Shown one piece after another: positions 856 through 38,848 of a stretch of 64,000 nt of DNA. How positions within the stretch are numbered: position 1 is the first letter of the stretch; each line of letters begins with the position of its first letter. The stretch is from Bryobacteraceae bacterium. GTDB lineage: Bacteria; Acidobacteriota; Terriglobia; Bryobacterales; Bryobacteraceae. The notes under the pieces were generated by a model. It saw only the letters and a list, made by a program, of their open reading frames with translations. It had not been told where the DNA came from and did no database searches. The translations under genes and the position numbers were made by a program. The stretch is from NCBI GenBank assembly GCA_034408745.1, contig JAWXCM010000206.1, positions 6,326-70,325 of the forward strand, written 5' to 3'.

Positions 856-3456
856 TTATGGAATGCGGCTGGCTGAGTTTGGCGGATCGGCCCAGTGGCG
901 GAAGAAGCGGCGCCAGCCTGTCTCGGGTTGCGCGAAACCCTCCACCATGTAAATGTCCGCATTCCCTCTGCTGAACGTCAGGGTTATGCGCTGGCCACCG
1001 GGATGCATTCCGGGCAGGAGCGGAGTGGGAGAATATCGGTCTGGTACAGACAGGCGGATTTCTCCCGTTCTGCTGGCCGTTGCAGGATCGATGCGGACGA
1101 GCCTGGTAGTGGGTGGCGTGCCTTCCGCGATGGCCACCAAAAGTCCCTGGGACTTGTCCCAGACCGGTGATCCACTGGCGCGTTCCACGACTCGGGAAGC
1201 GCCTCCGTGAGCCGCGACGACGCTCACGCCGCCGTCGCTTGAGTAGGCGATTTGCTCTCCGTCGGGCGACCATGCGCAAGTGGTGCGTCCGAAGCCGTTT
1301 CGCGCCTGAGAGGCGACTTTCACGGGAGGGCGGGCGCCGCCGGACTCCACCTTCCAAAGCTCGCCGCCGCTGACAGGGCCTTCGCTGTAAGCCAGCCAGT
1401 TGCCGTCGGGCGACCAGCAAACGCTGCCACCGCGGACTTGCACCCGTGTGGAGGTATCCCGCAACATGGTCTGAGGACCGCCGGCGGCAAGGACGATGAA
1501 GACTCCGCCCTGTCTGCGAAAAGCAAGGCGGCGCCCATCGGGCGAGAACGCCGGCGAAACTGCGACCGGATCGGCGACCACCAGACGCCCGCCCTTTCCA
1601 TCCTGCTCCGCGATCCAGATACCGGACCCCTCCTCAAAGTGAGCGACTGATTTTCCATCCGGAGACCAACTTGTGCCGTGCTCGATGACGGTGGTGGCCC
1701 GCAGGGGTCGAAGAAACCGGCCAGTGATATCGAACTCCAATAAGTCGAAATCTACTTTGCTCTTGTCTATGGCAATTCTCTGCCCATCGGGACTGACAGA
1801 GAGCCCGAACCAGCCGTCGTTTCCTGCAAGCAACAACTGTTTCGCGGAGGACTCAGTGTCGGCGAGCATGAGTCGGGTGCCGCCGTCGCCGGTGGTAAAT
1901 GCGGCGTGCCGGGAATCAGGCATCCACGACGTGTAGTAGGCATCGCGTATCGACGGCACTGCACGAACCTTCCCTCCGGGCCAGGAAACAACAAGAGCTG
2001 CTTCGTTGGCGTGTCCGATCAGAAGCTTTGTTCCATCCGGGGAGAACGCAGGCTTGCCGGCTTCGATTTCCTCCTCGAAAGGCAAATCGGCGATGCGCCT
2101 GGCGTTACCACCTCCGATGGGCCAGGAAAGCAGGCGTACCCTGGCGCCATTCTCTTCACGAACCAGGCTGACGGAGACGATCGATTTCTCGTCAGGCGCC
2201 ATTGTAAAGCGGGCCCGCACAGTCTGGAGATCGCACTTTAGTTCGCGGGGCGAGCCCCCCGAAACGGAAATGGCACGAATGCCCTCGCTCGCATAGTAGA
2301 TAGTCCCGCCGTCTTTTGACCATCCGATGATTTCGGCAGACTTGTTTCCGCTAGTCAGTTGTGTGGAACTGCCCCCGTTCAGGGAGCGAACGAAAACCTG
2401 GCCAATCGCGTTGACGGCGCGGACATAGGCAAGGGACTTACCGTCAGGCGAGAACCGGGGCAAGTATTCCTCCTCCGGCTCGACCGCAATCGGTGAGATC
2501 CGCAGGGAGGTGGCGGGTACCGACTCGTGCGGAACAAGCAGGAATACCGCCGCGGCGCCGGCGAGTGCTGCGGCCGCCACCGCTGACGGCAGGAGCCATG
2601 ATCGAGGCCGGGTAACCGGGCCCAGGTTCGGTATTGGGGCGACGGACGCCTCGCTGAGCCGGTCACGGACATTGCGCAGTTCTCGATAGAGGTCGCGCGT
2701 GGAGTCGTAGCGGTTCTCGGGGTCCTTGGCCAGGCACCTCTCGATGATCCACCGGAGCGGGGCTGGCAGACTTGCCGGCAACGGTTCCGGATCTTCGCGG
2801 ATGATGGCGGTCATTGTCTCCACCGTACTGTCGCGCTGGAAGGCCCGACGGCCAGTGGCGAGTTCGTAGAGGATCAACCCGAACGAGAACTGGTCGCTGC
2901 GCGCATCGAGTTCGTGCGCGCGAGCTTGCTCGGGGCTCATGTACGCGATGGTGCCGACGACGAAGCCCGGCTGGGAGACGGATACCGTGCGGGTCAACTG
3001 GTCTGTCGCCGGCGCGCCCGCGACCTGTTTAGCGAGGCCGAAGTCGAGGATCTTGACTCGCCCGGACTTGCCGACCAGGATGTTGTCGGGTTTCAAGTCC
3101 CGATGAATGAACCCGGCCGAGTGAGCGGCGGCGAGGCCGTCAGCGATTTGCACTGCGATGTCGAGCAGGCGGCGCGTGTCGTCGCCCTGCCGCACTGGCT
3201 CACCTTCGACGTACTCCATGACGAGGTAGTCGTCGCCGATGTCGTGAAGGGTAGCAATATTGGGGTGATTGAGCGCTGCGATCGCGCGGGCTTCGAAGCG
3301 AAAGCGATCTGTGAACTGGTCGTGTGAAAACTTGATCGCGACCGTACGGTCGAGGCGCGTGTCGCGGGCCTTCCAGACCTCACCCATGCCGCCGGCACCA
3401 ATGGCCGCGAGCAGCTCGTACGGGCCGATCCGGGAGCCAGGCGAGCGGGCTACCAC
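856..3456 (-). CDS. Receptor Ser/Thr protein kinase K1: Hanks kinase, single TM helix, TolB/PD40-like beta-propeller
   Basis: 866 aa. Kinase motifs [28 protein letters not shown] and MSPEQ are present. A hydrophobic helix (WLLPSAVAAAALAGAAAVFLLV) follows. The C-terminal half has repeated (F/W)SPDG blades. GTG start at 3456 has GGAG 7 nt upstream and overlaps the K2 stop by 7 nt. Confidence 0.9.
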   Translation of the reverse strand: MVARSPGSRIGPYELLAAIGAGGMGEVWKARDTRLDRTVAIKFSHDQFTDRFRFEARAIAALNHPNIATLHDIGDDYLVMEYVEGEPVRQGDDTRRLLDIAVQIADGLAAAHSAGFIHRDLKPDNILVGKSGRVKILDFGLAKQVAGAPATDQLTRTVSVSQPGFVVGTIAYMSPEQARAHELDARSDQFSFGLILYELATGRRAFQRDSTVETMTAIIREDPEPLPASLPAPLRWIIERCLAKDPENRYDSTRDLYRELRNVRDRLSEASVAPIPNLGPVTRPRSWLLPSAVAAAALAGAAAVFLLVPHESVPATSLRISPIAVEPEEEYLPRFSPDGKSLAYVRAVNAIGQVFVRSLNGGSSTQLTSGNKSAEIIGWSKDGGTIYYASEGIRAISVSGGSPRELKCDLQTVRARFTMAPDEKSIVSVSLVREENGARVRLLSWPIGGGNARRIADLPFEEEIEAGKPAFSPDGTKLLIGHANEAALVVSWPGGKVRAVPSIRDAYYTSWMPDSRHAAFTTGDGGTRLMLADTESSAKQLLLAGNDGWFGLSVSPDGQRIAIDKSKVDFDLLEFDITGRFLRPLRATTVIEHGTSWSPDGKSVAHFEEGSGIWIAEQDGKGGRLVVADPVAVSPAFSPDGRRLAFRRQGGVFIVLAAGGPQTMLRDTSTRVQVRGGSVCWSPDGNWLAYSEGPVSGGELWKVESGGARPPVKVASQARNGFGRTTCAWSPDGEQIAYSSDGGVSVVAAHGGASRVVERASGSPVWDKSQGLLVAIAEGTPPTTRLVRIDPATASRTGEIRLSVPDRYSPTPLLPGMHPGGQRITLTFSRGNADIYMVEGFAQPETGWRRFFRHWADPPNSASRIP

Positions 3457-6017
3457 GACAGCGCTCCGTCGATGGTCCAGATGTCGGATGTTTCTGTTTC
3501 GACGGTGACCAGCAGTCGCTTGCCGTCCGGATGGAGGTTGACGTTGAACAGACGCTTGTCAATGGCAACATCGAGTGTGACCAGCTTCTTCTCGATCCCG
3601 GCTGCCACGTCAATCGACCACAATTCCCATTGCCGTCGTTCTCCGCGGCGCAGCCCGAAAATGCTCCTGCCGCCGGGGCCGAAGGAGAACGTGCGGTATC
3701 CACCCTTCGACAGCACCCGATCCGTTTTGCCGTCCGTCGAGATAACGTGGAGATCACCTCCGCCCTCAGTCAGGAACGCGATGAGGTCTCCGGCGGGGGA
3801 CCAGTTTACAGGAAACCCAGGTGTCGGCTCTTTCGCTGTGTAGATGTCCACCGGCTCGCCTCCGGACGTCGACACCCTGGTGATTCTGGCGCCATCTGCC
3901 GCGTACCGCGTGTAGACGATCCAGGCTCCATCGGGTGAGAATGACGCACCATGGGTGTCCTTGCGGGCCCGGTCCACTTCAATCGGTACACCCCCGGATG
4001 CAGAGACCAGCAGGACTCGGTGTTCCTTGCCGTAACTGTCGAGCGAGAGCTGCTGCCCATCGTGGGAGAAATTGATGCGCTGTATGTTCTCCACTTCAGG
4101 ACCGGAGAGTGACAACGGTCTGGGCACGCCTCCTCCATCAGCCTTAAAGAAGATTGCAGCGCGGCCCGCGACATCGCTGATATATGCGAATTCGCGGCCC
4201 GACGGATGCCAGACGGCTGCCGAGTCCGTGCGGCCGCGCTCCACAAGCGAACGTCCCTTGCCGCTGTCGATCTGGAACTCGTAGACGGCCTGCTGAAGCG
4301 CATGAACGGAAACGGCGATTCGTGTGCCGTCGGGGGAGATGGCAGGATCTCGCTCTCCGGCGGGTCCCGCCGTGAGCGTGCGCTGTGCTCCCGACTTCAC
4401 GTTGATGGCGTACAGATGCGTTTCGTCGGTTTCCGATCTGCGGCTCGCAAGAACAATGTGTTTCCCGTCGGGCATCCACTGAAACAGTCCCTGAGCGATG
4501 GTGTAGCTTCGAAACCGGGCTGGCGACCGGACCGGGTTGTCACCATTCGCGCCAGCAATCCACAACTCTCGCTCATCCTGCTCATCCTGCCGGTTGAGGC
4601 AGAGCAGCGCGAGTTGTTTGCCGTCAGGCGAGAACCTTGGAACAGCGGTTCGGGACTTCTCCGGAAACCCTGGACGGCGGTAGCGTACCGCGTTCGTGCC
4701 GTCACCGTTGGCGAGATAAATTGCGCCTTCCGAGCGCCGGAAGAATGCGAGCCGCCCTCCGTCGGGAGAGAGCGATCCGAATACGGCATCTTTGACGAAC
4801 AGCTGCGGCACACCGCCGGTAGCGCCGACGAAGTAGACATTCCTGCCAAGTTCGAAGTAAACGCGAGTGCCGTCGGGCGACCAGAACGGCCTTGCGGCGG
4901 CGGTTTTCCCCTGGGTCAGTTGCGCCGCTGAAGTAGCGTCGACCGTCCTGGTGAACACCTGATCGATCCCGTCTACGTTGCACGTATACGCGACCGTGCG
5001 GCCATCCGGGGACCAGGCGGGCTGTCGTTCCCGGCAGGCGTCCGTGGCGAACGGCGTGTACTTTACGTCGGGCGCTACGGTTCGCGGCGGGCGCAGCCAG
5101 AAGAAAGCTGCCACCGAGCATACGGCTGCAAGAGCGGCTCCGAGCGCGAATGGCAACACGGGCCAGTGGCGTTGGGGCTGGACGGCTGCGGGCTGTCCTG
5201 CGGACTGCGTCTCGGTGATGCGGGTGCGAGCCGAGCGCAGGTCCGCCAACAGGTCTTTTGTCGAGGCGTAGCGTTCTTCAGGATCCTTGGCGAGGAGCCG
5301 CTCGATGATCCAGCGCAGAAGCGCCGGGACGGTGGGCGGGAGTGGCTCGGCTTCATCGCGGATGATGGCGGCCAGCGTTTCGGGCGCGCTTGGCCGCGCG
5401 AACGCGCGTTTTCCTGCGGCGAGTTCGTACAGCACCAGGCCGAAGGAGAACTGGTCACTGCGCGCGTCGAGCTCCTGTCCACGCGCCTGCTCAGGGCTCG
5501 TGTACGCCGTGGTGCCAACGATGCTGCCGGGGTCTGTGACGGAGGTGCGCGTCGCGTCCTCGGCTGCGGGCCGAACGGCGGCTTTGGCGAGGCCAAAGTC
5601 CAGAATCTTGACGCGATTCGATTTCGTCAGCAGGATGTTGTCCGGCTTCAGGTCGCGATGCACAAAACCGGCCGTGTGGGCGGCTGCGAGGCCGTCGGCG
5701 ATCTGCACGGCGACGTCGAGAAGCTTGCGGGTGTTGTCGGGGGCGCGGAGCGGCTCGCCGTCAACGTACTCCATCACGATGTAGTTCTCGCCGACATCGT
5801 AAAGGGCGGCTACGTTCGGGTGGTTCAGCGCGGCGATGGCCCGAGCCTCGCGTTCGAACCGCTCGCTGAATTGCGCGTGCGAGAACTTGATGGCGACCAC
5901 TCGGTCGAGCCGGGTGTCGCGGGCTTTCCACACCTCACCCATGCCGCCAGCGCCGATGGGGGCGAGCAGTTCGTAGGGTCCGATTCGTCCGCCTGCCTTT
6001 ACTGCTTCCGCGGCCAT
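3450..6017 (-). CDS. Receptor Ser/Thr protein kinase K2 (kinase-TM-TolB-like propeller)
   Basis: ORF track gives 3450..6029. I prefer the ATG at 6017 (MAAEAVKAGGRIGPYELL). This start is conserved in K3, K4 and K5 and is preceded by GGGAGAGG. Full Hanks motif set, a TM helix and SPDG-type repeats are present. Confidence 0.9.
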   Translation of the reverse strand: MAAEAVKAGGRIGPYELLAPIGAGGMGEVWKARDTRLDRVVAIKFSHAQFSERFEREARAIAALNHPNVAALYDVGENYIVMEYVDGEPLRAPDNTRKLLDVAVQIADGLAAAHTAGFVHRDLKPDNILLTKSNRVKILDFGLAKAAVRPAAEDATRTSVTDPGSIVGTTAYTSPEQARGQELDARSDQFSFGLVLYELAAGKRAFARPSAPETLAAIIRDEAEPLPPTVPALLRWIIERLLAKDPEERYASTKDLLADLRSARTRITETQSAGQPAAVQPQRHWPVLPFALGAALAAVCSVAAFFWLRPPRTVAPDVKYTPFATDACRERQPAWSPDGRTVAYTCNVDGIDQVFTRTVDATSAAQLTQGKTAAARPFWSPDGTRVYFELGRNVYFVGATGGVPQLFVKDAVFGSLSPDGGRLAFFRRSEGAIYLANGDGTNAVRYRRPGFPEKSRTAVPRFSPDGKQLALLCLNRQDEQDERELWIAGANGDNPVRSPARFRSYTIAQGLFQWMPDGKHIVLASRRSETDETHLYAINVKSGAQRTLTAGPAGERDPAISPDGTRIAVSVHALQQAVYEFQIDSGKGRSLVERGRTDSAAVWHPSGREFAYISDVAGRAAIFFKADGGGVPRPLSLSGPEVENIQRINFSHDGQQLSLDSYGKEHRVLLVSASGGVPIEVDRARKDTHGASFSPDGAWIVYTRYAADGARITRVSTSGGEPVDIYTAKEPTPGFPVNWSPAGDLIAFLTEGGGDLHVISTDGKTDRVLSKGGYRTFSFGPGGRSIFGLRRGERRQWELWSIDVAAGIEKKLVTLDVAIDKRLFNVNLHPDGKRLLVTVETETSDIWTIDGALSW

Positions 6018-8614
6018 AGCCTCTCCCATAAGTTCGCGGGCGGTGGACGAAAGCCCTCGAGAATCCAGATGTCACCCTCGCTCGCAGCCACGGTTCCGGC
6101 GAGGAACTTGCCGTCAGGCGAGATGCTGAAGCGCCGGCCCGCGCCGGCCCGCGAGTTAAAGCGTAACGCCCCCGGGAGGTTACTCACAGTCTTCACACTG
6201 CCGGATTTCCAGTTCAGTTCGAGTATCTGCTGCGAGGCGGTGCCTCGATACATACCGACCAGCGACCGGCCATAAATTGCGGTCCCGTCGCGATTCCACG
6301 TTGCGGGACGACCGAGCTCAGCAGGAAGGTCCATCACTTTCTTTCCGTCTCCCGACATTAACCAGGGAGGCCGGATTGGCGGATTCACTATGCACAGAAT
6401 TAAATCATCCTTTGGCGACCATTCCGGGCGGCATCGATCTGCCCCGAGGTCGACGGGCTGCTCATGGCTGCCAGGCCGAATCTTCCTTACGCGCCCTGAC
6501 AGCAAGGAATACGCGATCCACTTGCCGTCGGGCGACCAGGAGGGGGTGGCATGGTCTCCGCCGTTCTCGCCTATCGGCGTGGGTGTTCCGCCTGAGACCG
6601 CGACCACCCAGATACCCTGACCGCTTGCCCGGCGCACCGAGAAGGCGACGCGGGTTTCGTCAGGGGAGAAGACTGGGTCGATGAACTCGAACACGCCTGT
6701 CTGGTCGGGAAGGGACTTGCGCGAGACCACAATTCGTTCCGTTCCGGAATCGCGGTCATGGAGCACAATCTCCTCCTGCCGAACATAAAGAAAGCGGTTG
6801 GTTCGCGGTGCCCATGAAGGGTACTGAAGAGTAAGCCGGGACCGCACCATGGGCCGTGGCGGAGAACCGTCAATCGGCATCTCCAGCAGCGAGAAGCGCC
6901 GGGCTCCCTCAACGTAGGCGATACGTGAGCCGTCGCGGCTGACCGACGGCTGGGTGGCGGTAGAACTCGGTAACAGCCAGGACAAGCGGCCTGTGTCTGT
7001 GTCGATGAGGCGTAAGCCCGGGTCATCGCCCGCGGAGAGTACACCATGGCGACCGTCGGAGAGCCATGCGACATCCAGAAAAGAACTGCCCAGGGACTCC
7101 AACAGCCGCCGGGATCCGCCTGCGGCATTGACCAGCCATACCTCCTGACCATGCGCAGTCGGGATTGAGACCAACAGGCGCTTCGAATCGGGAGACCAGG
7201 TTAGGTGGTCGGGAGCGAAGCAGCACTCCGGATCGAATCCTGAGACTGGCTTCGGCTCTGCCTCGGGTGGTGAGGCGATGACGAGTCTGCGCTTTCCGGG
7301 CGCTCCGGGGGAGTCTGTCTCGAGCGCGGCGAGGCTCTTGCCGTCCGGCGAGACTGCGGACGAGTAACTGCGGCGGATCTTCGGGAGACGGAAGGCCTCG
7401 CCCCCGGCTCTCCCAACCGAGAAGACACCGCCGTAGGACGTGTAATAGATGCGCGAGCCATCGCTGGACCAGCTCAGGCTTTCCACCGGCAGCAGTGCAT
7501 TGGCGACAACGACGGGCGGGCTCCCGTCGAGATCTCGCACCACGACTTCAAATCCGTCCCGGGACTGCCGGGTGTAGGCGATGCTGCGGCCGTCGGGCGA
7601 CCATGATGGGCTCTCTTCCGGAGCCTCCTCATTTGCGAAGGGCACGATCTTGTATTGCGAGGTGTCGGGCTGCCACGGGGCTCGCAGTTGCCACGCGACG
7701 AATGCAGTGGTTGCCAGCAGGGCTCCGGCTGCGAACCAGATGAAGATGTTCCCTGCTCTGGTGCGCCTTGCGGGCTCGACGGTGGAGGCGTGTTGCGACG
7801 CGCTGGTGTCTCGCATTCGCTCGCGCAGGGTACGTAGTTCCAGATAGAGGCCGCGGGTGGTGTCGTAGCGTTCGGAGGGGTCTTTGCTAAGGCAGCGTTC
7901 GATGACCCAGCACAGAGGGCCGGGAACGCTGGATGGCAATGGCTCGGCATCATCCCGGATGATGGCCGCCATGGTCTCCGGTACGCTCGGGCGCTGGAAC
8001 GCGCGCTTGCCCGCGACAAGCTCATAGAGCACGAGGCCGAAGGAGAACTGATCGCTCCGCGCATCGAGTTCCTCGCCGCGTGCCTGCTCCGGGCTCATGT
8101 ACGCAGTGGTGCCGACGATGGTGCCCGGGTTTGTGACGGAGGTGCGGGTGGCATCCTCGGAGGCGGGTCGCACGGCAGCTTTGGCGAGGCCGAAGTCGAG
8201 GATCTTGGCGCGCCCCGCCTTCGTGATCAGGATGTTGTCGGGCTTGAGGTCGCGATGCACGAAACCGGCGGCATGCGCGGATGCGAGTCCGTCGGCGATC
8301 TGCACGGCGAGGTCGAGCAATTTGCGGGTGTTGTCGGGGGCACGGACCGGCTCGCCGTCCACGTACTCCATGACGATGTAGTTCTCGCCGACATCGTAGA
8401 TTTGGGCAATGTTCGGGTGGTTCAGTGCGGCGATGGCCCGGGCTTCCCGTTCGAAGCGCTCAGTGAACTGGGCGTGAGAGAACTTGATGGCGACGACGCG
8501 GTCGAGGCGTGTGTCGCGAGCTTTCCACACCTCGCCCATGCCGCCTGCGCCGATGGGCGCGAGCAGTTCGTAGGGTCCGATTCGTCCGCCAGCCTTTACT
8601 GCTTCCGCGGCCAT
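5999..8614 (-). CDS. Receptor Ser/Thr protein kinase K3 (kinase-TM-TolB-like propeller)
   Basis: The ORF track start at 8629 is TTG. The conserved ATG at 8614 is preceded by GGGAGAGG. Same motifs as K2. The C-terminus is ...[25 protein letters not shown]. Confidence 0.9.
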   Translation of the reverse strand: MAAEAVKAGGRIGPYELLAPIGAGGMGEVWKARDTRLDRVVAIKFSHAQFTERFEREARAIAALNHPNIAQIYDVGENYIVMEYVDGEPVRAPDNTRKLLDLAVQIADGLASAHAAGFVHRDLKPDNILITKAGRAKILDFGLAKAAVRPASEDATRTSVTNPGTIVGTTAYMSPEQARGEELDARSDQFSFGLVLYELVAGKRAFQRPSVPETMAAIIRDDAEPLPSSVPGPLCWVIERCLSKDPSERYDTTRGLYLELRTLRERMRDTSASQHASTVEPARRTRAGNIFIWFAAGALLATTAFVAWQLRAPWQPDTSQYKIVPFANEEAPEESPSWSPDGRSIAYTRQSRDGFEVVVRDLDGSPPVVVANALLPVESLSWSSDGSRIYYTSYGGVFSVGRAGGEAFRLPKIRRSYSSAVSPDGKSLAALETDSPGAPGKRRLVIASPPEAEPKPVSGFDPECCFAPDHLTWSPDSKRLLVSIPTAHGQEVWLVNAAGGSRRLLESLGSSFLDVAWLSDGRHGVLSAGDDPGLRLIDTDTGRLSWLLPSSTATQPSVSRDGSRIAYVEGARRFSLLEMPIDGSPPRPMVRSRLTLQYPSWAPRTNRFLYVRQEEIVLHDRDSGTERIVVSRKSLPDQTGVFEFIDPVFSPDETRVAFSVRRASGQGIWVVAVSGGTPTPIGENGGDHATPSWSPDGKWIAYSLLSGRVRKIRPGSHEQPVDLGADRCRPEWSPKDDLILCIVNPPIRPPWLMSGDGKKVMDLPAELGRPATWNRDGTAIYGRSLVGMYRGTASQQILELNWKSGSVKTVSNLPGALRFNSRAGAGRRFSISPDGKFLAGTVAASEGDIWILEGFRPPPANLWERLWPRKQ
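6015..6027 (-). promoter_or_regulatory. Shine-Dalgarno plus ATG of K2, embedded in the K3 C-terminal codons (translational-coupling junction)
   Basis: The minus strand reads tGGGAGAGGctATGgcc. In the K3 frame these bases are tgg gag agg cta tgg = W E R L W. Confidence 0.65.
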
Positions 8615-11244
8615 AGCCTCTCCCACCAACTGCTCGGCGGTTCGAAACCGTCGAGGATCCAGATGTCGCCTTCGTTGCTCCGCACGGTTACTACGACGCT
8701 TTTCTCATCGGGCGAGACGGCGAGGCGCGTGGGACCTCCAAGCGGACCGCGAAACTCCAGGGGCTCGGAGAAAACGTACAGGACCTGGATCTTCCCGGAA
8801 GTGGCGTCAACGCGAATGAAGTCCTGCCTGCCTTCCTTCTGCCGGATGGCATAGATGGTCTTCTCATCTTTTGACAGACCAGCGCTCCAGACGGCCTCAG
8901 ACGTGACCTGCTGCAGTATTTTGCCCTCGTCGAAGGACATGAAGAACATTCCCTTCTGACCAGCGCAAAGGATTCTGCTGGAGCCTGACGAAGACGCATT
9001 GCAGTTACTGGTCGCAAGTTTGACCGGACTCTCGCTGCTGCCTAACCGATATCGGTACATGCCAGTGGGGAGTAGCTGCAGGTCGGGCTTCTGTGAGGCT
9101 CCGAACGATCCAAACATGACGGAACTTCCGTCCGCCGACCAGACGGTGTTCAACGCATTCTTACCCGGAATCACGGGAGATGGTGTTCCGCCGCCGATGG
9201 ACGAGACATAGCCGGTAAGGCCATTGAAGGTAGTAACTCCGTAGGCAATGCGCTGTCCATCCGGAGAAAAAACCGGTCTTTCCAGCCACTGCGACCTGCC
9301 TCCCCCGAAGTCACGGGGCGATACTACGACACGCTCGAGCGTTCCGGCGCGGTTTCTGACCCGGATTTCGTCGCCATGTATATAGGCATATTCATCCCCG
9401 GCCGGCGACCAGGCAAGTTCCGACTGGTTCACTCTGGAGGAGAGGAAACTGCGCGGGGCGGAGCCGTCGACCGGGATCTCGATGAGCCGGAAGCGTGTGA
9501 GTCCCTGGGTGTAGGCAATGCGTTTCCCGTCGGGCGACACGGAAGGGTATGCCACAGGGGCCGACGTCGCGAGGATCGGACGAATCCGGCCTGTTTCAGT
9601 GTCGATGAGCTGAATACCCTGCTCACCCGGGGAGCTGGCTATAACGGCGTGCCTGTTGTCGGGGAGCCATGACAGATGGACCTGCAGTACCGAGTTGAGT
9701 TCCGTGAGAGTGCGCACGCTTCGTCCGGGTTCTACGAGAAGCAACCGGCTGCGCCGCCCGAGCAGGCGTTCGGACACCAGGATTCGTCTGGAGTCGGGCG
9801 ACCACGCAATGGTGGGAGAGGTACCGCAACACTCCAGCGACTGAGAGAGCCTGGTGGGCGCTGAACCGGGGGGAGACTCGACCCAAATACGCCGAATCTG
9901 CTCTTCGCCTTGTTTTGTGTCCCGCACAAATGCGAGCGACTTGCCGTCAGGCGAAGCAGCAATGTCGTGCGTCCGGTTTCCGGCGGGTACGGGCAGCGCT
10001 TCCGGCTGTCCGCCTGCACGCGACACGGACCACGCTACAGAACCAAGCAGGAAGTAGAGGCGGTTGCCGTCCACGGACCAGGCCAGGCGCTCTACGAACG
10101 TCGGACTGACCGCATTCGCAGCGATGCTCAGCTTTGCGATGACGGTGGGAGCGTTGCCGTCCGCGTTCTTCAGCATGATTCTGAAATCACGAGGCGTCTT
10201 CACCACATAAGCAATGCTGCGGCCATCGGGGGACCACGTGGCGCCGTACTCGCCCGATTCTTCTGTCGCGAATGGCGTGAAGCGATAGGCGGAAATCTCG
10301 GGTTGCCATTGCTGACGGGAAGCCAGGCCGATGAAGGCGGCAGCGGTCAGGAGCACGGCGGCGACTGCGGTCACAACGCCGGGCATCCTTCGACGGTACA
10401 TTTGCCGTGGAGGGGCCAAGGCCACGGGCTCCGTTGCTTCGCTGAGGCGCTCTCGGATGGTTCGCAGTTCCAGGAACAGATCGCGAGTGGTGTCGTAACG
10501 GCTGGCTGGGTCTTTCGACAGGAGCCGTTCGATCACCCAGCGCAGAGGCGCGGGTATGGAGCCGGGCAATGGCGGCGTCTCGTCGCGGATGATGGCCGAC
10601 AGCGTTTCAACGGTACTGTCGCGCTGAAACGGCCGCTTGCCAGCGGCGAGCTCATACAGCATGAGGCCGAGGGAAAACTGGTCACTGCGCGCATCGAGTC
10701 CGAGGCCACGGGCCTGCTCGGGGCTCATGTAAGCGGCGGTGCCAATGATGCTGCCCGGGTCCGTGACAGACGTGCGAGTCGCGTCTGTTGCCGCGGGAGC
10801 GGTGCCGGATTTCGCAAGGCCGAAGTCCAGTATCTTGGCCCGACCCGCCTTCGTGATCAGGATGTTGTCGGGCTTGAGGTCACGATGCAGGATTCCCGCT
10901 GCATGTGCGGCAGCGAGGCCATCCGCGATTTGCATCGCCATGTCGAGCAGTGCTCGCGTGTTGTCGGGGGCACGGAGCGGCTCACCGTCCACGTACTCCA
11001 TCACGATGTAGTTCTCGCCGACGTCGTAGATTTGCGCGATGTTGGGGTGGTTGAGGGCGGCGATGGCGCGGGCCTCGCGTTCGAAGCGCGCGGTGAACTG
11101 GGCGTGAGAGAACTTGATGGCGACGACGCGGTCGAGGCGTGTGTCGCGGGCTTTCCACACCTCGCCCATGCCGCCGGCACCGATGGGCGCGAGCAGTTCG
11201 TAGGGTCCGATGCGGGCGCCGGCCTTCATTGTTTGCGCGGCCAT
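8596..11244 (-). CDS. Receptor Ser/Thr protein kinase K4 (kinase-TM-TolB-like propeller)
   Basis: The ORF track extends to 11577. That 111-aa Arg/Pro-rich extension lies inside K5 and has no kinase homology. The ATG at 11244 gives MAAQTMKAGARIGPYELL, which aligns with the K2/K3 N-termini. It lies 2 nt after the K5 stop. Confidence 0.85.
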   Translation of the reverse strand: MAAQTMKAGARIGPYELLAPIGAGGMGEVWKARDTRLDRVVAIKFSHAQFTARFEREARAIAALNHPNIAQIYDVGENYIVMEYVDGEPLRAPDNTRALLDMAMQIADGLAAAHAAGILHRDLKPDNILITKAGRAKILDFGLAKSGTAPAATDATRTSVTDPGSIIGTAAYMSPEQARGLGLDARSDQFSLGLMLYELAAGKRPFQRDSTVETLSAIIRDETPPLPGSIPAPLRWVIERLLSKDPASRYDTTRDLFLELRTIRERLSEATEPVALAPPRQMYRRRMPGVVTAVAAVLLTAAAFIGLASRQQWQPEISAYRFTPFATEESGEYGATWSPDGRSIAYVVKTPRDFRIMLKNADGNAPTVIAKLSIAANAVSPTFVERLAWSVDGNRLYFLLGSVAWSVSRAGGQPEALPVPAGNRTHDIAASPDGKSLAFVRDTKQGEEQIRRIWVESPPGSAPTRLSQSLECCGTSPTIAWSPDSRRILVSERLLGRRSRLLLVEPGRSVRTLTELNSVLQVHLSWLPDNRHAVIASSPGEQGIQLIDTETGRIRPILATSAPVAYPSVSPDGKRIAYTQGLTRFRLIEIPVDGSAPRSFLSSRVNQSELAWSPAGDEYAYIHGDEIRVRNRAGTLERVVVSPRDFGGGRSQWLERPVFSPDGQRIAYGVTTFNGLTGYVSSIGGGTPSPVIPGKNALNTVWSADGSSVMFGSFGASQKPDLQLLPTGMYRYRLGSSESPVKLATSNCNASSSGSSRILCAGQKGMFFMSFDEGKILQQVTSEAVWSAGLSKDEKTIYAIRQKEGRQDFIRVDATSGKIQVLYVFSEPLEFRGPLGGPTRLAVSPDEKSVVVTVRSNEGDIWILDGFEPPSSWWERLWPRKQ
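8612..8624 (-). promoter_or_regulatory. Shine-Dalgarno plus ATG of K3, embedded in the K4 C-terminal codons
   Basis: Same tGGGAGAGGctATGgcc string as at 6015-6027. In the K4 frame it encodes WERLW. Confidence 0.65.
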
Positions 11245-11246
11245 AA

Positions 11247-13751
11247 CTAGATTAGGCCCTTCGCCACAATCAGCTCGGAGGAAAACGCGCGATGGATGTA
11301 TACATATGATTTCCCGTCCGGTGTGACCCTGACCAGACCGGGATCGACTCTGGCTCCGGGCGGGGGTTCCAGATTGTACACCGGCCTGAGGTCGTTCGTT
11401 GCCAGATCGAGGCGGGACAGGCGTGCTCCGATTTTGCCGCCTGTGGCCACCCATGCGACGCGCCCGTCGGGCGTGATGCCTGCGACTTCCTGGTTCGGCT
11501 CCAGGCGGATGACCCGGTGGCCGGCGCCACCGAGTGGGAACAGGATCCATGCGCGTTCCGTCGTGCGCGCAAGGCACAGATTGGCCTGCTCTGCCACGAA
11601 GGCGCCGTACTGATCGAAGGGCATTTCCGGTCCGATTACCTGCAACTCTTGCTTACGAGCCTTCCAGAGATAGAACCGGCGTGTCTTCCCCTGCTCCCGC
11701 CCATTCACGACATACGTTTCATCCGGCAGCCACGCTACGATGCCCGCTGTTTTCGCTGGGAACCGGTCAATGATGAATGGCCTTTCCTGCCCTGGGCCAG
11801 TCGGCGCCAACACCGATCGAACATCGCCGGCGGTCCTGAACAACTGCACCCATTGGCCATCGGGTGAGATCGACACGGGGCCGCCGTCTCCCAGCCTGAC
11901 GGCAGGAGAACCGTCGAGGCGGCGCATGAAGGTAACTTGCTTCCCTTCATTGGTAAGAAAAGCACAAAAGGAACCGTCCTGCGACAAGAGCACGCTCAGG
12001 ATTGTGTCCGTCCAGGGGAGGTCCAGGTCGCTTCCACCTGCCACTCGTCCCCGGATGCCATGCCTTACATCGGTCTGACGCAGCAGCACCCTGCCATCTG
12101 CCGATATGCTTTGTGGCTCACTCAGGCCGGGGAGGGTTGTAACGACGCGCATCTTTCCGTTGAGGTTGACCGCATAGATCTTGCCAGGTTCTCCCACCAA
12201 AGGAGACACGAACCAAAGCTCGCGGCCATCCGGCGTCCAGCAGGCGCTCGAGGCATGGTGTCCCTGCGTGGTGAAGGAGGCGAGGACTGTCTCCTTGCCT
12301 CGCTTGTCAAGAACCGCTACTTTGAAGCCCGATCCGCGAAACACGGCGCCTCCCGATCCCGTATAGGACACGTGTTCCCCAGACGGTGACACACACACCG
12401 AATAAATGGCTGCGACGCCAGTTCGTTCCACCAGGGGGGTTCCGATCGGATACTGAATGCTGGACTTGTCTCCGGTGGTATGCAGAACCGCCAGGGATTC
12501 TCCGTCAGGGGACCAGTCCGCATACACAACGCCAGCCAGCAGTTGCCGGGGCGCGCCTCCGGACAGCGGCATACGAGCGAGCGTGCGACCCCGTCCCAGA
12601 ATGACCGCCAATTCGTTCTTTGTTGAAACAGCGGCAAGGTCAAAGATATCGTCGGTGGATATCTCATGACCGATTTTCTCGTGCGGCTCCAGATATTGAA
12701 GCCTGCGGGGTTCCGGGCCTAAACCCGTGCTAAAGACGACGCCACCGTTGGTGGTGAAGCGGGCATTGCCGATCCCGCCTTCGCGGAACGACAACCTCTG
12801 AAAGGCAGCATACCGCAAGCCCGTTTGCCTGTTCCCCAGCCAGTAACCGCCCGCTCCGACGGCCGCCACACCGGCGAGCGTGGCACCTCGCATGAGCCAT
12901 GTGCGACGCGGTATCGTGGTCACTTCGCGAATCGGCGCGAGGCCTGTCGTGGTTCCGCTGACCCGGAGCGCGAAGGCGAAATCCTGGGCTGACTGGAAGC
13001 GGCGCTGCGGCTGCTTTTCCAGAGCGTGCGCCACCACCTGGCGAAGCGAGGGCGGCGTTTGCTCCGGCAGTTCGGGCGCGTCCTCTTTCAGGATCGCGGT
13101 CATGGTCTCGACTGCCGTTGGCCGTAGAAATGGCTTCGTCCCGGACAGCATTTCATGCAGGATAATGCCGAGGCTGAAAATATCGGAGCGGTGATCCGCG
13201 ACGTCGGCACGGACCTGCTCAGGACTCATGTAAGCCACTGTGCCGAGCACGGTCCCGGGGTCAGTCATGCTGACGGTGCGGGTCCGGTCATCCTCCGCGG
13301 TGGCTGGCGTCACACGTCTTGCGATGCCGAAGTCGAGGATCTTCGGGGTGCCGCTCTGCGTGACGAGGATATTGTCAGGCTTGAGGTCTCGATGCACGAA
13401 CCCGGTCGCGTGAGCTGCCGCGAGGCCGTCGGCCACCTGAGCGATGAGCTCGACAGCCCGCCGGGTACTGTCCGTCGGGCTGAGAGGCGCGCCGTCGACG
13501 TACTCCATGACAATGTAATTTTCGCCGACATCGTAGATCTGGGCGATGTTGGCGTGGTTCAGCGCAGCGATGGCGCGGGCCTCGCGTTCGAAGCGCTCTG
13601 TGAACTGGGCGTGGGAGAACTTGATGGCGACGATGCGGTCGAGCCGCGTGTCGCGAGCTTTCCACACCTCCCCCATGCCGCCCGCGCCAATTGGCGCGAG
13701 CAGTTCGTAAGGTCCGACGCGGCGGCCCGACTGCATTAATTCCGGGGCCAT
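11247..13751 (-). CDS. Receptor Ser/Thr protein kinase K5, the divergent member (kinase-TM-beta-propeller-like ectodomain)
   Basis: Kinase motifs are present but the activation segment is DFGIARRV. The ectodomain differs from the others and lacks the WERLWPR tail. The ATG at 13751 (MAPELMQSG) is preceded by GGGAGAGG. The ORF track start at 13763 is also possible. Confidence 0.85.
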
Positions 13752-16348
13752 AACCTCTCCCAAAGAGTGCGCGGTTGCCGGAAGCCGTTGAGGATCCAGA
13801 TGTCGCCGTCTTGCACCAGGACGGATGCTGCCACGGACTTTCCGTCGGGCGAAAGCGACAGTCGGGCAGTACCAATTGGGCTGGAGGAGGCATAATCGCG
13901 GTCGAACGTGGACAACACTCGATGTGCGCCGGTCTCGACATTCACTTCCGCGAGTTGCGTTCTCTCCTGCGGGGCCATGGTGAGGTACAGGATTCGCTTG
14001 CCATCCCGCGACCAGGCAATGGGGCCAACCCTGTCGCCCAGTTTGCGAGGTGTGCCCCCGTGTGCGGGAATCAGTTCCAGACTGTTCGGGCCGTTACAGG
14101 CAATCCAGTCAGACACCGGGGACCATGCGGGAGTGGCACACGCGGTTGTGTGGACTGGCTGCGGATGGTCCCCGCTGCCGATGCGCAGCTTCGCCAGTAT
14201 CGTGCTCTGCCCCAGCCGGGTATGGTTGAAGGCGATCCACTGAGCGTCGGGCGAGAACGTAGCCGCGTAGCCGCCGTCGGGATTGCCACGCGCAATTCGG
14301 GCCAGCGCTCCGCCGCCTGCGGGAACAGCCCAGATCGACAGCCCGGGCTCGCAGCCACTACATGTGAACAGGATACGGGTCCCATCCGGTGAATAAACTA
14401 TCGAACCGAGCATCGGCCGCGATATGTCGTCCGGGAAGTCCTTCGGCGTCACAAGAACCTTTTCGCTGGAACCCTTGCCGTCCCGAACAATGAGTTCGTC
14501 GAGGGTGGCGAACACGAACTGATCTGCGCGCGGCGACCAGGCCACGGAATGCTGGTCCAGCTTTTCCGATGTCAGGAGCCGGGCAGGCGAGCCGTCCAGC
14601 GGCAGTTCTGCCAGGCCGAAGCCGTGCGTTTGCGTTGTGTACGCAAGTCTTGCGCCGTCCCGCGTGACAGTAAGGCCACTCTGCAAGGTTGCAGCGGGCA
14701 ACAGTGAGGCTTGCGTACCATCGCGCAGGTCGAAGAGACGCAGTCCCTGATCGCCGCCCGATTTCGAAAGCCCGGTTGCCACTCCGTAGCGGTCTCCGGG
14801 CAATGGCCACACCGTCGCATTGAGGCCTTGTGCGTCCAATCGGTATTCCCGGGCTTGCCCGTCGAGGGAGATCCACCAGAGCTGGCGATTTCCACCTTCG
14901 TCCGGCATGTGCACCATGACGTGTTTCCCGTCCGGCGCCCAGGTGATGGCGGGCGGTGTCAGGCAGCAAGGCAGGGCTGGCCCGAACGGCTTCGGCTCGG
15001 CTCCCGGGGGCGAGGAGAGGCCCACCCGGCGAGTCCGTTTTCCATCGACTTCCTCGGTTACAAGCACAGCCAGCGTATCGGCCACGGGGGACATGGCGGG
15101 AGTACCCGCGGCCACTGCCAGCCGCCGCGGCTCGCCGCCTGCGCGAGACACCGACGCGATAAAGCCGGGCGTGTGGGAACGGTCCTGATAGTAGATGCGC
15201 TCCCCGTCCGCGGACCAGCTCAGGTACAGGAAGTTCGAGCCGCGAGCCAGTGTCACCGGTGCGCCGCCACCTACACCCTTGACCACAATCTTCATGCTGT
15301 TGCCGTCCGAGATGGTGTACGCGATGGAGCGGCCATCGGGTGACCAGGCGGGTTGCGATTCATTCTCCGTCGTTACAGCGAACGGGGTGAAGCGATAGTT
15401 GGAGGCGTCGAGGCCTGGGGGCGGCGCCAGCATGGTGCCGATCAGAATGCAGAGTGCGGAAAGCGCTGCTGCCGCTGCTCCGACTTTCCACCACGGCCGT
15501 TTCCGGGCTGCTGTTTGAGGCGCCGCGACTGCGGTTCCAGACGCGCTGCTGAAGCGCTCGCGGGCACTGCGCAGTTCCAGATACAGGCCGCGGGTTGTGT
15601 CGTACCGATTCTCGGGATCTTTCGCAAGGCAGCGCTCGATGATCCAGCGCAGCGGCGCGGGGACCTCCAGTGGCAACGGCTCGGCGTCTTCGCGGATGAT
15701 GGCGGTGAGCACTTCCGCCGTCGAGGCACGCTCGAACGCCCGGTGGCCGGTTGCGAGCTCGTACATGACGAGCCCGAACGAGAACTGGTCGCTGCGCGCG
15801 TCGAGCTGCAGGCCCCGAGCCTGTTCCGGGCTCATGTAAGCCACTGTGCCGACGATTGCTCCAGGCTGCGTGGAGGTTACCGTAGCATCGCCTCCAGCGG
15901 CCGCGAAGGTCTGTTTGGCGAGTCCGAAGTCCAGGATCTTGACCCGGCCTGACTTCGTGATCAGGATGTTGTCTGGCTTGAGATCGCGATGGATGATGCC
16001 TGCGGCGTGTGCGGCGGCGAGGCCGTCGGCGATCTGGATGGCGATGTCGAGCAGCTTGCGCACATCATCGACGCGCCGTATCGCAGCGCCTTCGACGTAC
16101 TCCATGACGATGTAGGTCTCGCCGACATCGTAGATCTGGGCTATGTTGGGGTGGTTCAGTGCGGCGATGGCGCGGGCCTCGCGTTCGAAGCGTTCGGTGA
16201 ACTGGGCCTGGGAGAACTTGATGGCTACGGTGCGGTTCAGGCGGCTGTCGAGGGCTTTCCACACTTCGCCCATACCGCCGGCGCCGACCGGTGTCTGGAG
16301 AAGATAAGGGCCAACGTACGTGCCCTCACGAGCGTCAACGCCTGCCAT
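13736..16348 (-). CDS. Receptor Ser/Thr protein kinase K6, first gene of the array (kinase-TM-TolB-like propeller)
   Basis: 870 aa with [22 protein letters not shown] and DFGLAK, a TM helix and SPDG-type blades. It ends ...[23 protein letters not shown]. About 200 nt of non-coding sequence lies upstream. Confidence 0.9.
13749..13761 (-). promoter_or_regulatory. Shine-Dalgarno plus ATG of K5, embedded in the K6 C-terminal codons
   Basis: The minus strand reads tGGGAGAGGttATGgcc. In the K6 frame these bases are tgg gag agg tta tgg = WERLW. Confidence 0.6.
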
Positions 16349-16501
16349 GGTTTGTTTAGCGAACTCAACAACACTTTAGGGCTGCGCAGGGCGACCGGAA
16401 TGGGATGCTGCGCAAGCGTTTAATTATAGCGAATGCGTTAGTGAATATCGCCGAGACTGGCTCTGAGGAAGCGCGCCGATACCCAGTTCTGAGCATTACG
16501 T

Positions 16502-16539
16502 GAAAAGGGGGGACAGCACCTCCGGGGTGCTGTCCCCCC
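16502..16539 (-). terminator. Rho-independent terminator downstream of the CHRD-repeat gene
   Basis: A perfect 14-bp stem pairs GGGGGGACAGCACC (16507-16520) with GGTGCTGTCCCCCC (16526-16539) around a 5-nt loop. On the minus strand a TTTT run follows (complement of aaaa at 16503-16506). It sits 10 nt after the stop at 16549. Confidence 0.65.
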
Positions 16540-16548
16540 GCATGTGCC

Positions 16549-18591: not shown

Positions 18592-18938
18592 CAAAATTCC
18601 TCCAATGGCTCGACGGCCGACGGCAAGACGGGGGATGGGTACATCGGGTTGCATGTACACCCTCGTGGTCTGGTCTGTGACTATCCAGAGAGACCGAGCT
18701 TCGTGGCGGGTCTTCACTTCGTGATCGGGCGTACAGCCCAGCCGGTAATTGTCGAAAAAGCAGCAGCCCCATACCACGGCGCGACAGATAGTTCGTCCAG
18801 TTATCCAGCATCGACTAGTTGTGCAGCCGTGTCAACAGAAAGTAAGATGGTCCGAGGACAAAGCGAACGCAACCTCCGTTGAAGCCCATCCCCGAGCATG
18901 CCGCGCGCCTGGATAATCATCATGCCCGCTGACCCAAA

Positions 18939-20387
18939 GTGCTAATGAGTCACGGCACACGGAGAAACTGGATCGCTGGCTTTATCCTGCTGCTCTGTGT
19001 CGCCCTTGGCTTCGGCTGGGGAGTAATCTACAGCCGTTCCGCCAGCCCGAAAGCGCAACGGCGCATTCTCTACTACCACGATCCGATGCACCCGGCCTAC
19101 CGGTCCGATAAGCCTGGTATTGCTCCCGACTGCGGAATGGACCTGGAGCCCGTCTACGCCGACTCCGGTTCGGCGGCCGACTCCAGCGCCGCGACCGGGA
19201 CTGCCGGCAACCGCGTTGGAGCCGACATCGTCCAGGCGGTCGGCATCGTGACAGAAGAAGCGCGGCGTTCGGCGTTCGTACACACGATTCGGACGACTGG
19301 CCGGGTGGTTCAGGATGAAACGCGCGTCTATCGCGTAGTTTCAGGCAGCGAAGGCTGGGTTCGAAGTATCACGCCGAAGGCTACAGGAACCGTTGTAAGT
19401 AAAGGGGACCTGCTGGCGGTCTATTACGGTCGTGATTTTCAGGCGGCTCAGCAGTCCCTGATGTACGCGCTGAAGAACCTGGAAACAGCGAAGGCGGCAG
19501 CCGAAGGCAAGGTTCCGGCTGTGTCGCAAAATCAGGTGGATGCGGCGGTGGAGAACCTTCTCGCCCTGGGCGTGTCGGATATCCAGGTCGAGGCGCTTCG
19601 TAAAACAGGCCAGACGACCAGGAATATCGAACTACGGGCGCCCATCAGCGGCTTCATTCTCGCCAATAACGTGTTCACCGGTATGCGATTTGAACGGGGA
19701 GCGGAACTCGTCCGGCTTGCCGACCTAACCGAAGTCTGGATCACTGCCGATCTCTTCCGCAATGAGTCTTCGTTCGTGCGGCCCGGCAAATCGGCAAAGC
19801 TGACTGTGCCCGGTCAGCCCACGTCGACCATTGCCAAAGTAACGGATGCCTTGCCACTGTTCGATGGAGTTTCGCGAACGATGAAAGTCCGGCTGCAGGC
19901 CAACAACCCGGGCTACGTTTTGCGGCCCGGTATGTTTGTCGATGTCGAGTTTCCCGTTGAGACAGCACCGTCGCTGCATGTTCCAGTCGACGCCGTGGTC
20001 ACGTCGGGCACACAGAAGAGTGTTTTCGTGGAGCGTGAAACCGGCGGATACGACCGGCGCAGCGTCGAGACTGGCTGGCAGTTCGGCGACAGAGTCGAGA
20101 TTGTCTCCGGCATTGCTCCTGGCGACCGGATTGTGCGGTCCGGTGTCTTCCTGCTGGACTCGGAAGCAAGGATGAAGACGACGGTGCCGCAGCGGGCCCC
20201 TCCTGCCGAACCATCCCAAACGTCCCGGCTGTCCGAAGTCACGGACCCTGTCTGCCACATGAAGACAACTTCGACAGAACATACGGTCCTGTATGGAGGG
20301 CGCGAAGTTCGACTCTGTTCGAAAGCCTGCAAAGCGCGCTTTGAGGCGGATCCGCAGAAGTACGTTTCCGGTTCTCGGCCGCTATGA
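18939..20387 (+). CDS. cusB: CusB-like RND periplasmic adaptor with a C-terminal YHS domain
   Basis: N-terminal TM anchor. YYHDPMHPAYRSDKPGIAPDCGMDLEPVY matches the CusB/SilB N-terminal metal-site motif. HlyD-like body. The tail VCHMKTTSTEHTVLYGGREVRLCSKACKARFEADPQKY looks like a YHS/TRASH domain. Start is GTG at 18939 or ATG at 18945. Confidence 0.75.
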   Translation: MLMSHGTRRNWIAGFILLLCVALGFGWGVIYSRSASPKAQRRILYYHDPMHPAYRSDKPGIAPDCGMDLEPVYADSGSAADSSAATGTAGNRVGADIVQAVGIVTEEARRSAFVHTIRTTGRVVQDETRVYRVVSGSEGWVRSITPKATGTVVSKGDLLAVYYGRDFQAAQQSLMYALKNLETAKAAAEGKVPAVSQNQVDAAVENLLALGVSDIQVEALRKTGQTTRNIELRAPISGFILANNVFTGMRFERGAELVRLADLTEVWITADLFRNESSFVRPGKSAKLTVPGQPTSTIAKVTDALPLFDGVSRTMKVRLQANNPGYVLRPGMFVDVEFPVETAPSLHVPVDAVVTSGTQKSVFVERETGGYDRRSVETGWQFGDRVEIVSGIAPGDRIVRSGVFLLDSEARMKTTVPQRAPPAEPSQTSRLSEVTDPVCHMKTTSTEHTVLYGGREVRLCSKACKARFEADPQKYVSGSRPL

Positions 20388-29421: not shown

Positions 29422-29455
29422 GGCTGTTTGCGTCGGTGACACAGGATCCTCATGC

Positions 29456-30253: not shown

Positions 30254-30358
30254 GGCGTCCCTCTTCCTTATCCAGCGAATCAGCCCAGTATTCCCGGCTG
30301 TCTTCGGAATGATAGCGAGGTGTGGAATGCCTTCGACGCGGAGCTGACGAACAGACTG

Positions 30359-38846: not shown

Positions 38847-38848
38847 TC

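Follow-up and report, generated by a model that had tools for sequence, protein, structure and literature searches.

We analyzed a 64,000-nt stretch of DNA (hereafter the window) from a metagenome-assembled genome (MAG) of a Bryobacteraceae bacterium (Acidobacteriota). Positions 856-16348 of the window are occupied by six consecutive, co-directional open reading frames (ORFs) of the minus strand, named here K1 to K6 by increasing coordinate, K6 being the first gene and K1 the last. Taken together, the results indicate that these genes probably constitute an operon-like array of six competent receptor Ser/Thr kinases with PknA/PknB-like catalytic domains, which would have originated by a birth-and-death process and in which kinase halves would have been replaced between neighbors.

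The six kinase genes and their products

All six genes could be delimited from the ORF listing and the context of their start codons. K1 (856-3456, minus strand as are all genes of the array; 866 amino acids, aa) begins with a GTG codon preceded by GGAG 9 nt upstream. K2 (3450-6017, 855 aa), K3 (5999-8614, 871 aa), and K4 (8596-11244, 882 aa) come next in coordinate order, and K4 starts 2 nt past the stop codon of K5 (11247-13751, 834 aa), the divergent member of the set, which has a Gly/Ala-rich membrane helix. K6 (13736-16348, 870 aa) begins with ATG and lacks an obvious Shine-Dalgarno sequence. At the other preferred starts, a Shine-Dalgarno-like GGAG or GGGAGAGG is located 4-9 nt upstream, that of K4 being weak. 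The lengths of K1-K6 coincide with those of six consecutive NCBI calls, MDZ4799725.1-MDZ4799730.1, all labeled 'protein kinase [Bryobacteraceae bacterium]' and encoded on a 72,670-bp MAG contig; K1, K3, K4, and K6 are identical in sequence to MDZ4799725.1, MDZ4799727.1, MDZ4799728.1, and MDZ4799730.1, respectively. A longer version of K4, a 993-aa ORF initiated at the GTG at 11577, was considered and discarded, as it would run 330 nt into K5, the added segment is of low complexity, and the NCBI call is of 882 aa. The K4 frame has no stop in the 111 codons that precede its real start (11245-11577, minus strand), and this Arg/Pro/Gly-rich extension is probably an artefact of the high G+C content.

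Consecutive genes overlap by 7 nt at the K2/K1 junction (3450-3456, minus strand), 19 nt at K3/K2 (5999-6017, minus strand), 19 nt at K4/K3 (8596-8614, minus strand), and 16 nt at K6/K5 (13736-13751, minus strand), and the last two junctions have the same design as K3/K2. The 2-nt gap between K5 and K4 is the sole non-coding space inside the array. These sizes agree with those given in the original prediction. The junction is dual-coding: within the codons for the C-terminal tail of one protein lie both the Shine-Dalgarno sequence GGGAGAGG and the start codon (ATG) of the following gene, whose product begins MAAEAVK. In K2-K5, the first 300 nt together with the junction are 84-90% identical. 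A similar tail is present in single-gene relatives, and an altered form was found in distant relatives; because the tail occurs where there is a single gene, it must be a protein feature as well.

The Pfam Pkinase domain (PF00069) was detected in the six proteins with scores of 139-149 bits (gathering cut-off 31.7) and E-values in the range 1e-40 to 1e-43, among them 3.6e-41 (K1), 2.4e-40 (K2), 1.5e-41 (K4), 2.2e-43 (K5), and 3e-42 (K6). The Gly-rich loop, the VAIK Lys, the alpha-C Glu, and the HRDLKPxN, DFG, and SPE motifs are present in K1-K6, including the K1 alpha-C segment, FRFEARA, which still has the Glu residue. The activation loop is Thr-rich (T-x-T) in all six. The catalytic motifs are thus intact across the set, as had been proposed, and none of the proteins is an obvious pseudokinase; at the level of motifs they are predicted to be catalytically competent. 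Foldseek comparison of the kinase portion of a K3 model retrieved PknA and PknB of Mycobacterium tuberculosis (target TM-score 0.74-0.83, 33-41% identity), and phmmer searches with the K3 kinase matched the same proteins at E-values between 8e-48, the value for PknA, and 5e-44. Protein identity in the kinase-plus-linker region ranges from 54 to 80% across the six; K2, K3, and K4 are mutually 76-80% identical, and K5 shares 54-62% with the rest. Describing the kinase halves as almost superimposable was therefore an overstatement, K5 being the outlier.

The full-length AlphaFold2 model of K3, built from a 111-sequence alignment, has a mean predicted local distance difference test (pLDDT) score of 89.2. 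It consists of a kinase with the bilobal fold (aa 1-271, positions 7802-8614, minus strand), with pLDDT above 90 over most of its residues, a disordered linker (aa 272-288), a transmembrane segment modeled as one long helix (aa 291-311, positions 7682-7744, minus strand), and an all-beta double-propeller ectodomain (aa 322-853, positions 6056-7651, minus strand) followed by a short C-terminal helix. By a hand count on the DSSP strand list, the ectodomain, of about 530 residues, has approximately 12-13 four-stranded blades, that is, two propellers. Foldseek grouped it with two-propeller proteins, for example LRP6 E3E4, and by sequence it matched TolB propellers (E = 4.6e-11). Hydrophobic windows were found by Kyte-Doolittle analysis at about residues 286-308 in K1-K4 and K6 (aa 289-307 in K6), and K5 had no window at the threshold used. 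Similarly, PD40 (PF07676, cut-off 20.9 bits) scored above threshold in five of the six proteins, with 52-113 bits in K1-K4 and K6 and 17 bits, under the cut-off, in K5; E-values were 5.2e-33 for K1, 1.9e-31 for K2, 1.2e-25 for K4, 5.7e-14 for K6, and 0.0056 for K5. The AlphaFold2 model of K5 (pLDDT 88.7) nevertheless comprises a kinase, a helix at 284-310, and an all-beta ectodomain at 316-831. Since it repeats the plan of K3 despite the weak PD40 score and hydrophobicity, the kinase-membrane helix-ectodomain plan is held by all six. The single architecture of the six minus-strand genes, which had been recognized from the sequence, is in this way supported by Pfam (Pkinase in the six, PD40 above threshold in five) and by the models of K3 and K5.

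The membrane segment of K5 (12836-12920, minus strand, aa ~278-305) is Gly/Ala-rich and weakly hydrophobic, with a twin arginine before it that recalls a Tat signal, though it is located mid-protein.

Among the six ectodomains identity is 27-39%. Those of K3, K4, and K6 can be aligned at 35-39% and have in common the tail GDIWIL.GF..P...WERLWPR. According to the models, the six ectodomains represent one double-propeller fold, so they share more than the blade motif to which their resemblance had been restricted.

Histories of the kinase and ectodomain halves

Neighbor-joining trees of the two halves were built with 50 family members and 100 bootstraps; the percentages are approximate. K2, K3, and K4 formed a group in 71/100 replicates of the kinase tree and in 0/100 of the ectodomain tree. 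In the latter, K3 joined P0002 (90/100, compared with 1/100 in the kinase tree), K2 joined P0078 (93/100), K6 joined P0016 (87/100, compared with 34/100 in the kinase tree), and K4 joined P0017, P0019, P0021, P0023, and P0025 (63/100). In this phylogeny, which had been suggested as a check of duplication in place, the kinases of K2-K4 group together, while the ectodomains never do and join proteins of other assemblies instead. The highest ectodomain identities to proteins of other assemblies were 72-75% for K3 (P0002), 59% for K6 (P0016), 57% for K5 (P0127, followed by a broad kinase-PD40/Tricorn_N family), 55% for K2 (P0078), and 46% for K4. For K1 the best value was 44%, to a kinase located beside a K5-like gene in metagenome contig L085; the same gene is its closest full-length relative (51.5%). 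With relatives at 46-75% in other assemblies, five of the six ectodomain types are old and conserved, which contradicts the idea that the inputs had diversified locally.

Synonymous differences were counted at four-fold sites within identical codon families and compared by Fisher tests, because the Nei-Gojobori synonymous divergence (dS) of the ectodomains was saturated and alignment-dependent. Between K2 and K3, 57/122 sites differed in the kinase and 59/80 in the ectodomain (p = 1.5e-4); the corresponding figures for K3 and K4 were 55/118 and 76/123 (p = 0.02). The signal of homogenization was strongest in the first 100 codons, where nucleotide identity among K2-K5 is 83-93%. In the K2-K3, K3-K4, and K3-K5 comparisons, four-fold mismatch was 0.31-0.37 in the N-lobe versus 0.51-0.67 further on. 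The nucleotide identity of K5 to K3 falls from 86% in codons 1-50 to 45% in columns 200-264, and four-fold differences increase from 16/43 in the N-lobe to 33/49 in the C-lobe (Fisher p = 0.006). Judged from these sequence comparisons, K5 is a mosaic, with an N-lobe resembling those of K2-K4 (K3 in particular) and a highly divergent C-lobe.

The most informative case is K3. Its kinase is closer at synonymous sites to those of K2 and K4 (dS 0.70-0.74, mismatch 0.47) than to that of its orthologue P0002 (dS 1.46, mismatch 0.57), whereas its ectodomain is 72% identical to that of P0002 and only 30-39% identical to those of K2 and K4. This reversal is not explained by constraint at the protein level, and recombination between neighbors that replaces the 5' half can produce it. 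Concerted evolution is recognized by the discordant grouping of segments together with a lower synonymous divergence in the converted segment; the trees showed the former and the four-fold counts the latter. These data support a partial homogenization of the kinase halves that would include K2, K3, K4, and the N-lobe of K5. The homogenized output domain of the original prediction is thus retained for these regions and abandoned for K1 and K6. The process seems old, because there is no near-identical tract and synonymous mismatch in the N-lobe is still 0.31-0.37, and incomplete, because K1 and K6 are unaffected.

Loci related to the array indicated how such arrangements are gained and lost. Of the 80 loci examined, 65 have a single kinase, and a single scan of a genome collection with K3 detected no orthologous locus, the best match being 35% identical. 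Synteny was obtained from four metagenome contigs, L081, L082, L084, and L085. In L084, a soil contig from the Joint Genome Institute (JGI), a K6-type gene adjoins a K4-type gene, the two overlapping by 16 nt. Protein identity between their kinase halves is 92-98% and DNA identity 85-95%, 43/133 four-fold sites differ, and their ectodomains are about 35% identical; the two form a clade in 100/100 bootstraps of the kinase tree and in 0/100 of the ectodomain tree. In L082, the closest orthologue of K3 (P0002, 72%) stands alone and is followed by a decayed kinase start at 7132-7260. In this remnant, which reads MAAEAMKAEERFGLRGLLARIGAGGMNED*, both the ATG and the 19-nt overlap survive, and a fragment of a further kinase region comes after it; we take this as evidence of array contraction. 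L085 has a 94-aa ORF (2197-2481) in which the first 77 residues of a kinase are fused in frame to the C-terminal tail GFEPPKGFLERLWLWKR; it lies between two full kinase genes, overlaps on both sides, and could have arisen by deletion or could be a functional mini-protein. This ORF is followed by the K5-like gene (60%) and the K1-like gene mentioned above, so that types that are neighbors in L085 have K4, K3, and K2 between them in the window. L084 (16 nt) and the relics of L082 and L085 all retain the overlapping junction, and these relics lead us to propose that arrays grow and shrink through recombination events that leave the junction intact.

Tandem kinase genes were also found in more distant organisms. 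Locus L022, in a Planctomycetota MAG (4467-22100), consists of six co-directional kinase genes with overlaps of 1-4 nt, several of them of the kinase-PD40 type; three kinase-PD40 members have kinases 76-86% identical and ectodomains 28-36% identical. L043, in an Ignavibacteriaceae MAG (9974-21700), has six tandem kinase-domain matches, and the three genes scanned with Pfam all encode kinase-TPR proteins. These two loci indicate that kinase arrays are not confined to Acidobacteriota; within the phylum, three tandem kinase-PD40 genes are present in an Acidobacteriaceae locus (L041). The ectodomain has a wide distribution of its own, as a search with that of K3 collected 9,862 protein clusters at E <= 1e-10. 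The double-propeller PD40/Tricorn_N module is also fused to a winged-helix Trans_reg_C domain (L081, 2839-4884), and it occurs in proteins of approximately 550-650 aa that appear, by length and Pfam content, to lack a kinase (the proteins considered for other contexts were P0222, P0146, P0186, and P0204). Because of these other fusions and contexts, the module may be regarded as a general periplasmic input for several outputs.

Proposed mechanism and alternative explanations

The model that we favor is as follows. Each protein would consist of a cytoplasmic Hanks kinase, a disordered juxtamembrane linker, one transmembrane helix, and a periplasmic double propeller of the PD40/TolB type. One promoter upstream of K6 would drive the six genes, and the overlapping junctions would couple their translation. 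Each ectodomain would bind its own periplasmic or envelope ligand, which would control dimerization and autophosphorylation of the activation loop of an RD-type kinase in the manner established for PknB and PknD, and the similar kinase halves would act on common or overlapping cytoplasmic substrates. Here we infer ligand binding, dimerization, substrates, and co-expression. As for the origin, sequence comparison suggests birth-and-death evolution by duplication, deletion, and recombination at the conserved junction. The ectodomain types would be older than this genome and under purifying selection (in K3 the ratio of nonsynonymous to synonymous divergence, dN/dS, relative to P0002 is ~0.1). 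The 5' or kinase halves of K2, K3, and K4 and the N-lobe of K5 would have been exchanged by gene conversion or unequal recombination after the ectodomain types diverged. The conservation of the K3 ectodomain across saturated synonymous sites argues for specific, maintained ligands and not for rapid diversification.

The gene layout is most naturally, and plausibly, read as one transcript with translational coupling. Co-transcription is suggested by the overlaps, the Shine-Dalgarno sequences inside preceding genes, the lack of internal terminators, and a strong terminator upstream of K6. Terminator-like sites in the array were at chance level (15 versus 11.8 +/- 4 expected), and a consensus scan identified no sigma-70-like promoter site on the minus strand. 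The terminator upstream of K6 is that of a gene coding for a CHRD-domain protein; it is a hairpin at 16503-16539 (minus strand) whose 14-bp G+C stem encloses a loop of 5 nt and is followed by UUUU, and was missed by the terminator scan because it has only four U residues. It parts the array from the CHRD gene within a 200-nt spacer, and the minimum free energy fold of this intergenic region has a z-score of -2.6. A TATAAT hexamer at 16423-16428 (minus strand), 75 nt before the K6 start and without a good -35 sequence, is a putative promoter element; it was noticed by reading, is the only promoter-like element seen, and was not called by the consensus scan. No terminator was evident after K1 (fold z = -0.19), and Rfam had no match in or near the array.

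Several observations weigh against the model. It is the arrangement of the genes alone that suggests co-transcription and translational coupling, and among the largest ORFs, the ones scanned in the rest of the window, no FHA protein, PP2C phosphatase, or other obvious kinase partner was seen. K1 and K6 bear no homogenization. The K2-K3-K4 kinase clade has only moderate support (71/100) and was obtained by simple distance methods. Part of the similarity must be constraint, because the kinases of this family are 70-80% identical even between assemblies. In addition, synonymous sites of the kinases are near saturation (0.47-0.62, with a random expectation of 0.62), and their third positions are rich in C (53%), a codon bias above that of the ectodomains that may lower the apparent synonymous divergence. 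One alternative is that there was no gene conversion, the genes being old tandem duplicates with kinases kept alike by stronger purifying selection and codon bias. The dN/dS of the kinases (0.14-0.30) is consistent with such selection, kinases attached to unrelated ectodomains elsewhere are 75-81% identical to that of K3 (for example, P0013 and P0014), and the C-rich third positions drop the expected mismatch to 0.62 from the 0.70 of the ectodomains. However, selection at the protein level cannot place K3 nearer to K2 and K4 at four-fold sites (0.47 overall, 0.31-0.34 in the N-lobe) than to its own orthologue (0.57) when the ectodomains follow the opposite order. Neither does it account for the sharp fall in identity past the N-lobe in the K5 mosaic, nor for the L084 pair, with nearly identical kinases beside very different ectodomains and bootstraps of 100/100 and 0/100. 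On balance, evolution without conversion appears unlikely.

Other explanations concern the array itself, its expression, and its role. As the source is a MAG and the 5' ends of the genes are similar, dispersed paralogues could have been joined by the assembly. Nevertheless, the longest exact DNA word common to any two genes of the array is 56 nt, and 5' identity does not exceed 93%. According to cluster metadata, JGI records contain sequences identical to K3, K5, and K6, and K4 (with a later start) and a variant of K2 are on a JGI contig of 55,164 bp, a size different from that of the 72,670-bp NCBI contig; the K2 variant, P0033, has one residue changed (AYMSPEQ versus AYTSPEQ). K2-K6 are hence represented in JGI records, and in-frame overlapping junctions of the same design exist in other contigs. 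An assembly artefact, which had been named as a condition that would refute the array, is extremely improbable. The genes could instead be neighbors that are expressed independently, each from an internal promoter that escaped the scan, given that acidobacterial promoters are poorly known, that only sigma-70-type consensus sequences were sought, and that related loci have single kinases or gaps of at least 56 nt (L081, L041). Against this, all but one of the five junctions are overlaps and the exception is a gap of 2 nt, so that no non-coding room is left for a terminator and any promoter would sit inside coding sequence, terminator-like matches do not exceed chance, and L084 and even decayed relics have preserved the overlap at the junction. 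We consider independent expression quite improbable. A role in anti-phage defense of the PD-T4-6 type, in place of environmental sensing, was suggested by matches to PADLOC models at E-values of 1e-72 to 1e-78. Yet these matches cover only the generic kinase domain (residues ~10-280, for example profile positions 16-301 of 510), with no PADLOC match to the membrane helix or the double propeller; NCBIfam models for MAD6 and PglW are far below their cut-offs, and no other defense genes were found among the ORFs scanned in the window. This role is very unlikely.

Beyond the favored model, a more speculative possibility, to which we attach a low probability, is that these genes are receptor cassettes maintained by recombination, whose products heterodimerize and cross-phosphorylate to integrate periplasmic signals combinatorially. 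The dual-coding junction and the homogenized N-lobe would keep the members compatible for heterodimer formation, and the junction would serve as the crossover point at which ancient sensors are added, deleted, or swapped behind a shared kinase. The back-to-back dimerization surface of PknB is its N-lobe. If true, such a cassette system would be a bacterial analogue of the plant receptor-like-kinase or NLR clusters.

Relation to known systems and genomic context

The known protein with the most similar topology is PknD of M. tuberculosis, with an N-terminal cytoplasmic Hanks kinase, one transmembrane helix, and an extracytoplasmic beta-propeller that is presumed to be ligand-binding; the kinase fold of the array belongs to the same PknA/PknB/PknD class. 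PknD is described as a receptor kinase with an extracellular six-bladed NHL propeller (Good et al. 2004, cited in PMC2877116; PMC1847690). It differs from the array in that it has one NHL propeller, compared with a sensor of ~530 residues formed by two PD40/TolB-type propellers, and in that the array comprises six paralogous genes. No NHL match was found in the array, and the NCBIfam PknD model scored 118-122 bits, with a cut-off of 839. The closest solved kinase domains are those of PknA/PknB and Stk1/StkP (35-41% identity), which are likewise RD kinases with a Thr-rich activation loop. The TRLDR and YDVGE motifs, which we take to contain the equivalents of PknB L33 and D76, are conserved in the N-lobes of the array. 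The array ectodomain is unrelated to theirs and has no PASTA domain; the PASTA kinase model NF033483 matched in the kinase domain only, with 250-270 bits and a cut-off of 450. The ectodomain matches TolB propellers and Pfam PD40, and is likewise periplasmic. In contrast to TolB, it lacks the TolB N-terminal domain, has two propellers instead of one, and is tethered to the inner membrane and a kinase. The TolB model TIGR02800 (cut-off 343) reached 106 bits with K3 and 23 bits with K5, in both cases through the propeller repeats only. No NCBIfam model matched the array proteins at its cut-off.

PD40 has been listed as one of the domains that are most frequently joined to bacterial kinases (PMC2877116), and kinase paralogues are expanded in the related Solibacter usitatus (PMC3174227). 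In Myxobacteria and Planctomycetota, adjacent kinase duplicates and genome-specific clades have been attributed to 'duplication and/or recombination' (PMC11032199, citing Perez et al. 2008). These expansions resemble the array in being large paralogous families of big soil genomes with adjacent duplicates and with PD40, WD40, and TPR as common tethered domains. What the array adds is the contrast between the histories of kinase and sensor, the overlapping dual-coding junction, and the relics. A literature search of incomplete coverage did not locate reports of an ancient sensor next to a locally replaced kinase within an array, or of a conserved overlapping junction with relics. The same search found nothing specific on gene conversion in bacterial receptor kinases or on acidobacterial kinase-TolB proteins, and no report characterizing any kinase-PD40 receptor kinase. 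The assertion that arrays of this kind have no described function stands as to function, and not as to the domain combination and the tandem expansions, which are published (PMC2877116, PMC3174227, PMC11032199).

The CHRD-domain protein encoded just upstream of the array (16549-18777, minus strand, 742 aa) ends in a TIGR03437 domain (150 bits). This 'Solibacter uncharacterized C-terminal domain' is paralogous and typical of Solibacter/Bryobacter, in agreement with the taxonomy. The region 18939-25379 looks, judging the translations by eye, like a copper/heavy-metal module, and includes a putative membrane-fusion protein whose C terminus bears a Cys-rich metal-binding motif (18939-20387, plus strand), a putative CusA/CzcA-like RND pump (20384-23662, plus strand), and a putative multicopper oxidase (23652-25379, minus strand). 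Genes for glycan use are found at 26785-41485; they encode a GH63/MGH1-like hydrolase, a GH127 beta-L-arabinofuranosidase, a CBM9/DUF5916 protein, and a 1138-aa CarboxypepD_reg/OMP beta-barrel protein that is a TonB-dependent-like transporter. The segment 48214-48303 (minus strand) matches the Rfam tRNA-Sec model over its full length with 78 bits; this gene for a selenocysteine tRNA implies that the Bryobacteraceae genome supports selenoprotein synthesis.

The locus is genuine and well formed, it belongs to an abundant family that has already been annotated, and its arrangement recurs in other genomes. The results represent a modest evolutionary refinement of a known pattern and not a new system. 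Few signaling proteins of soil Acidobacteriota are as abundant as kinase-PD40 receptor kinases, and this locus is compact, with six sensor types behind related kinases and relatives in which gain, loss, and kinase replacement can be followed. If co-expression and cross-talk were demonstrated, it would be a useful model for the growth of large bacterial kinomes wired to common outputs.

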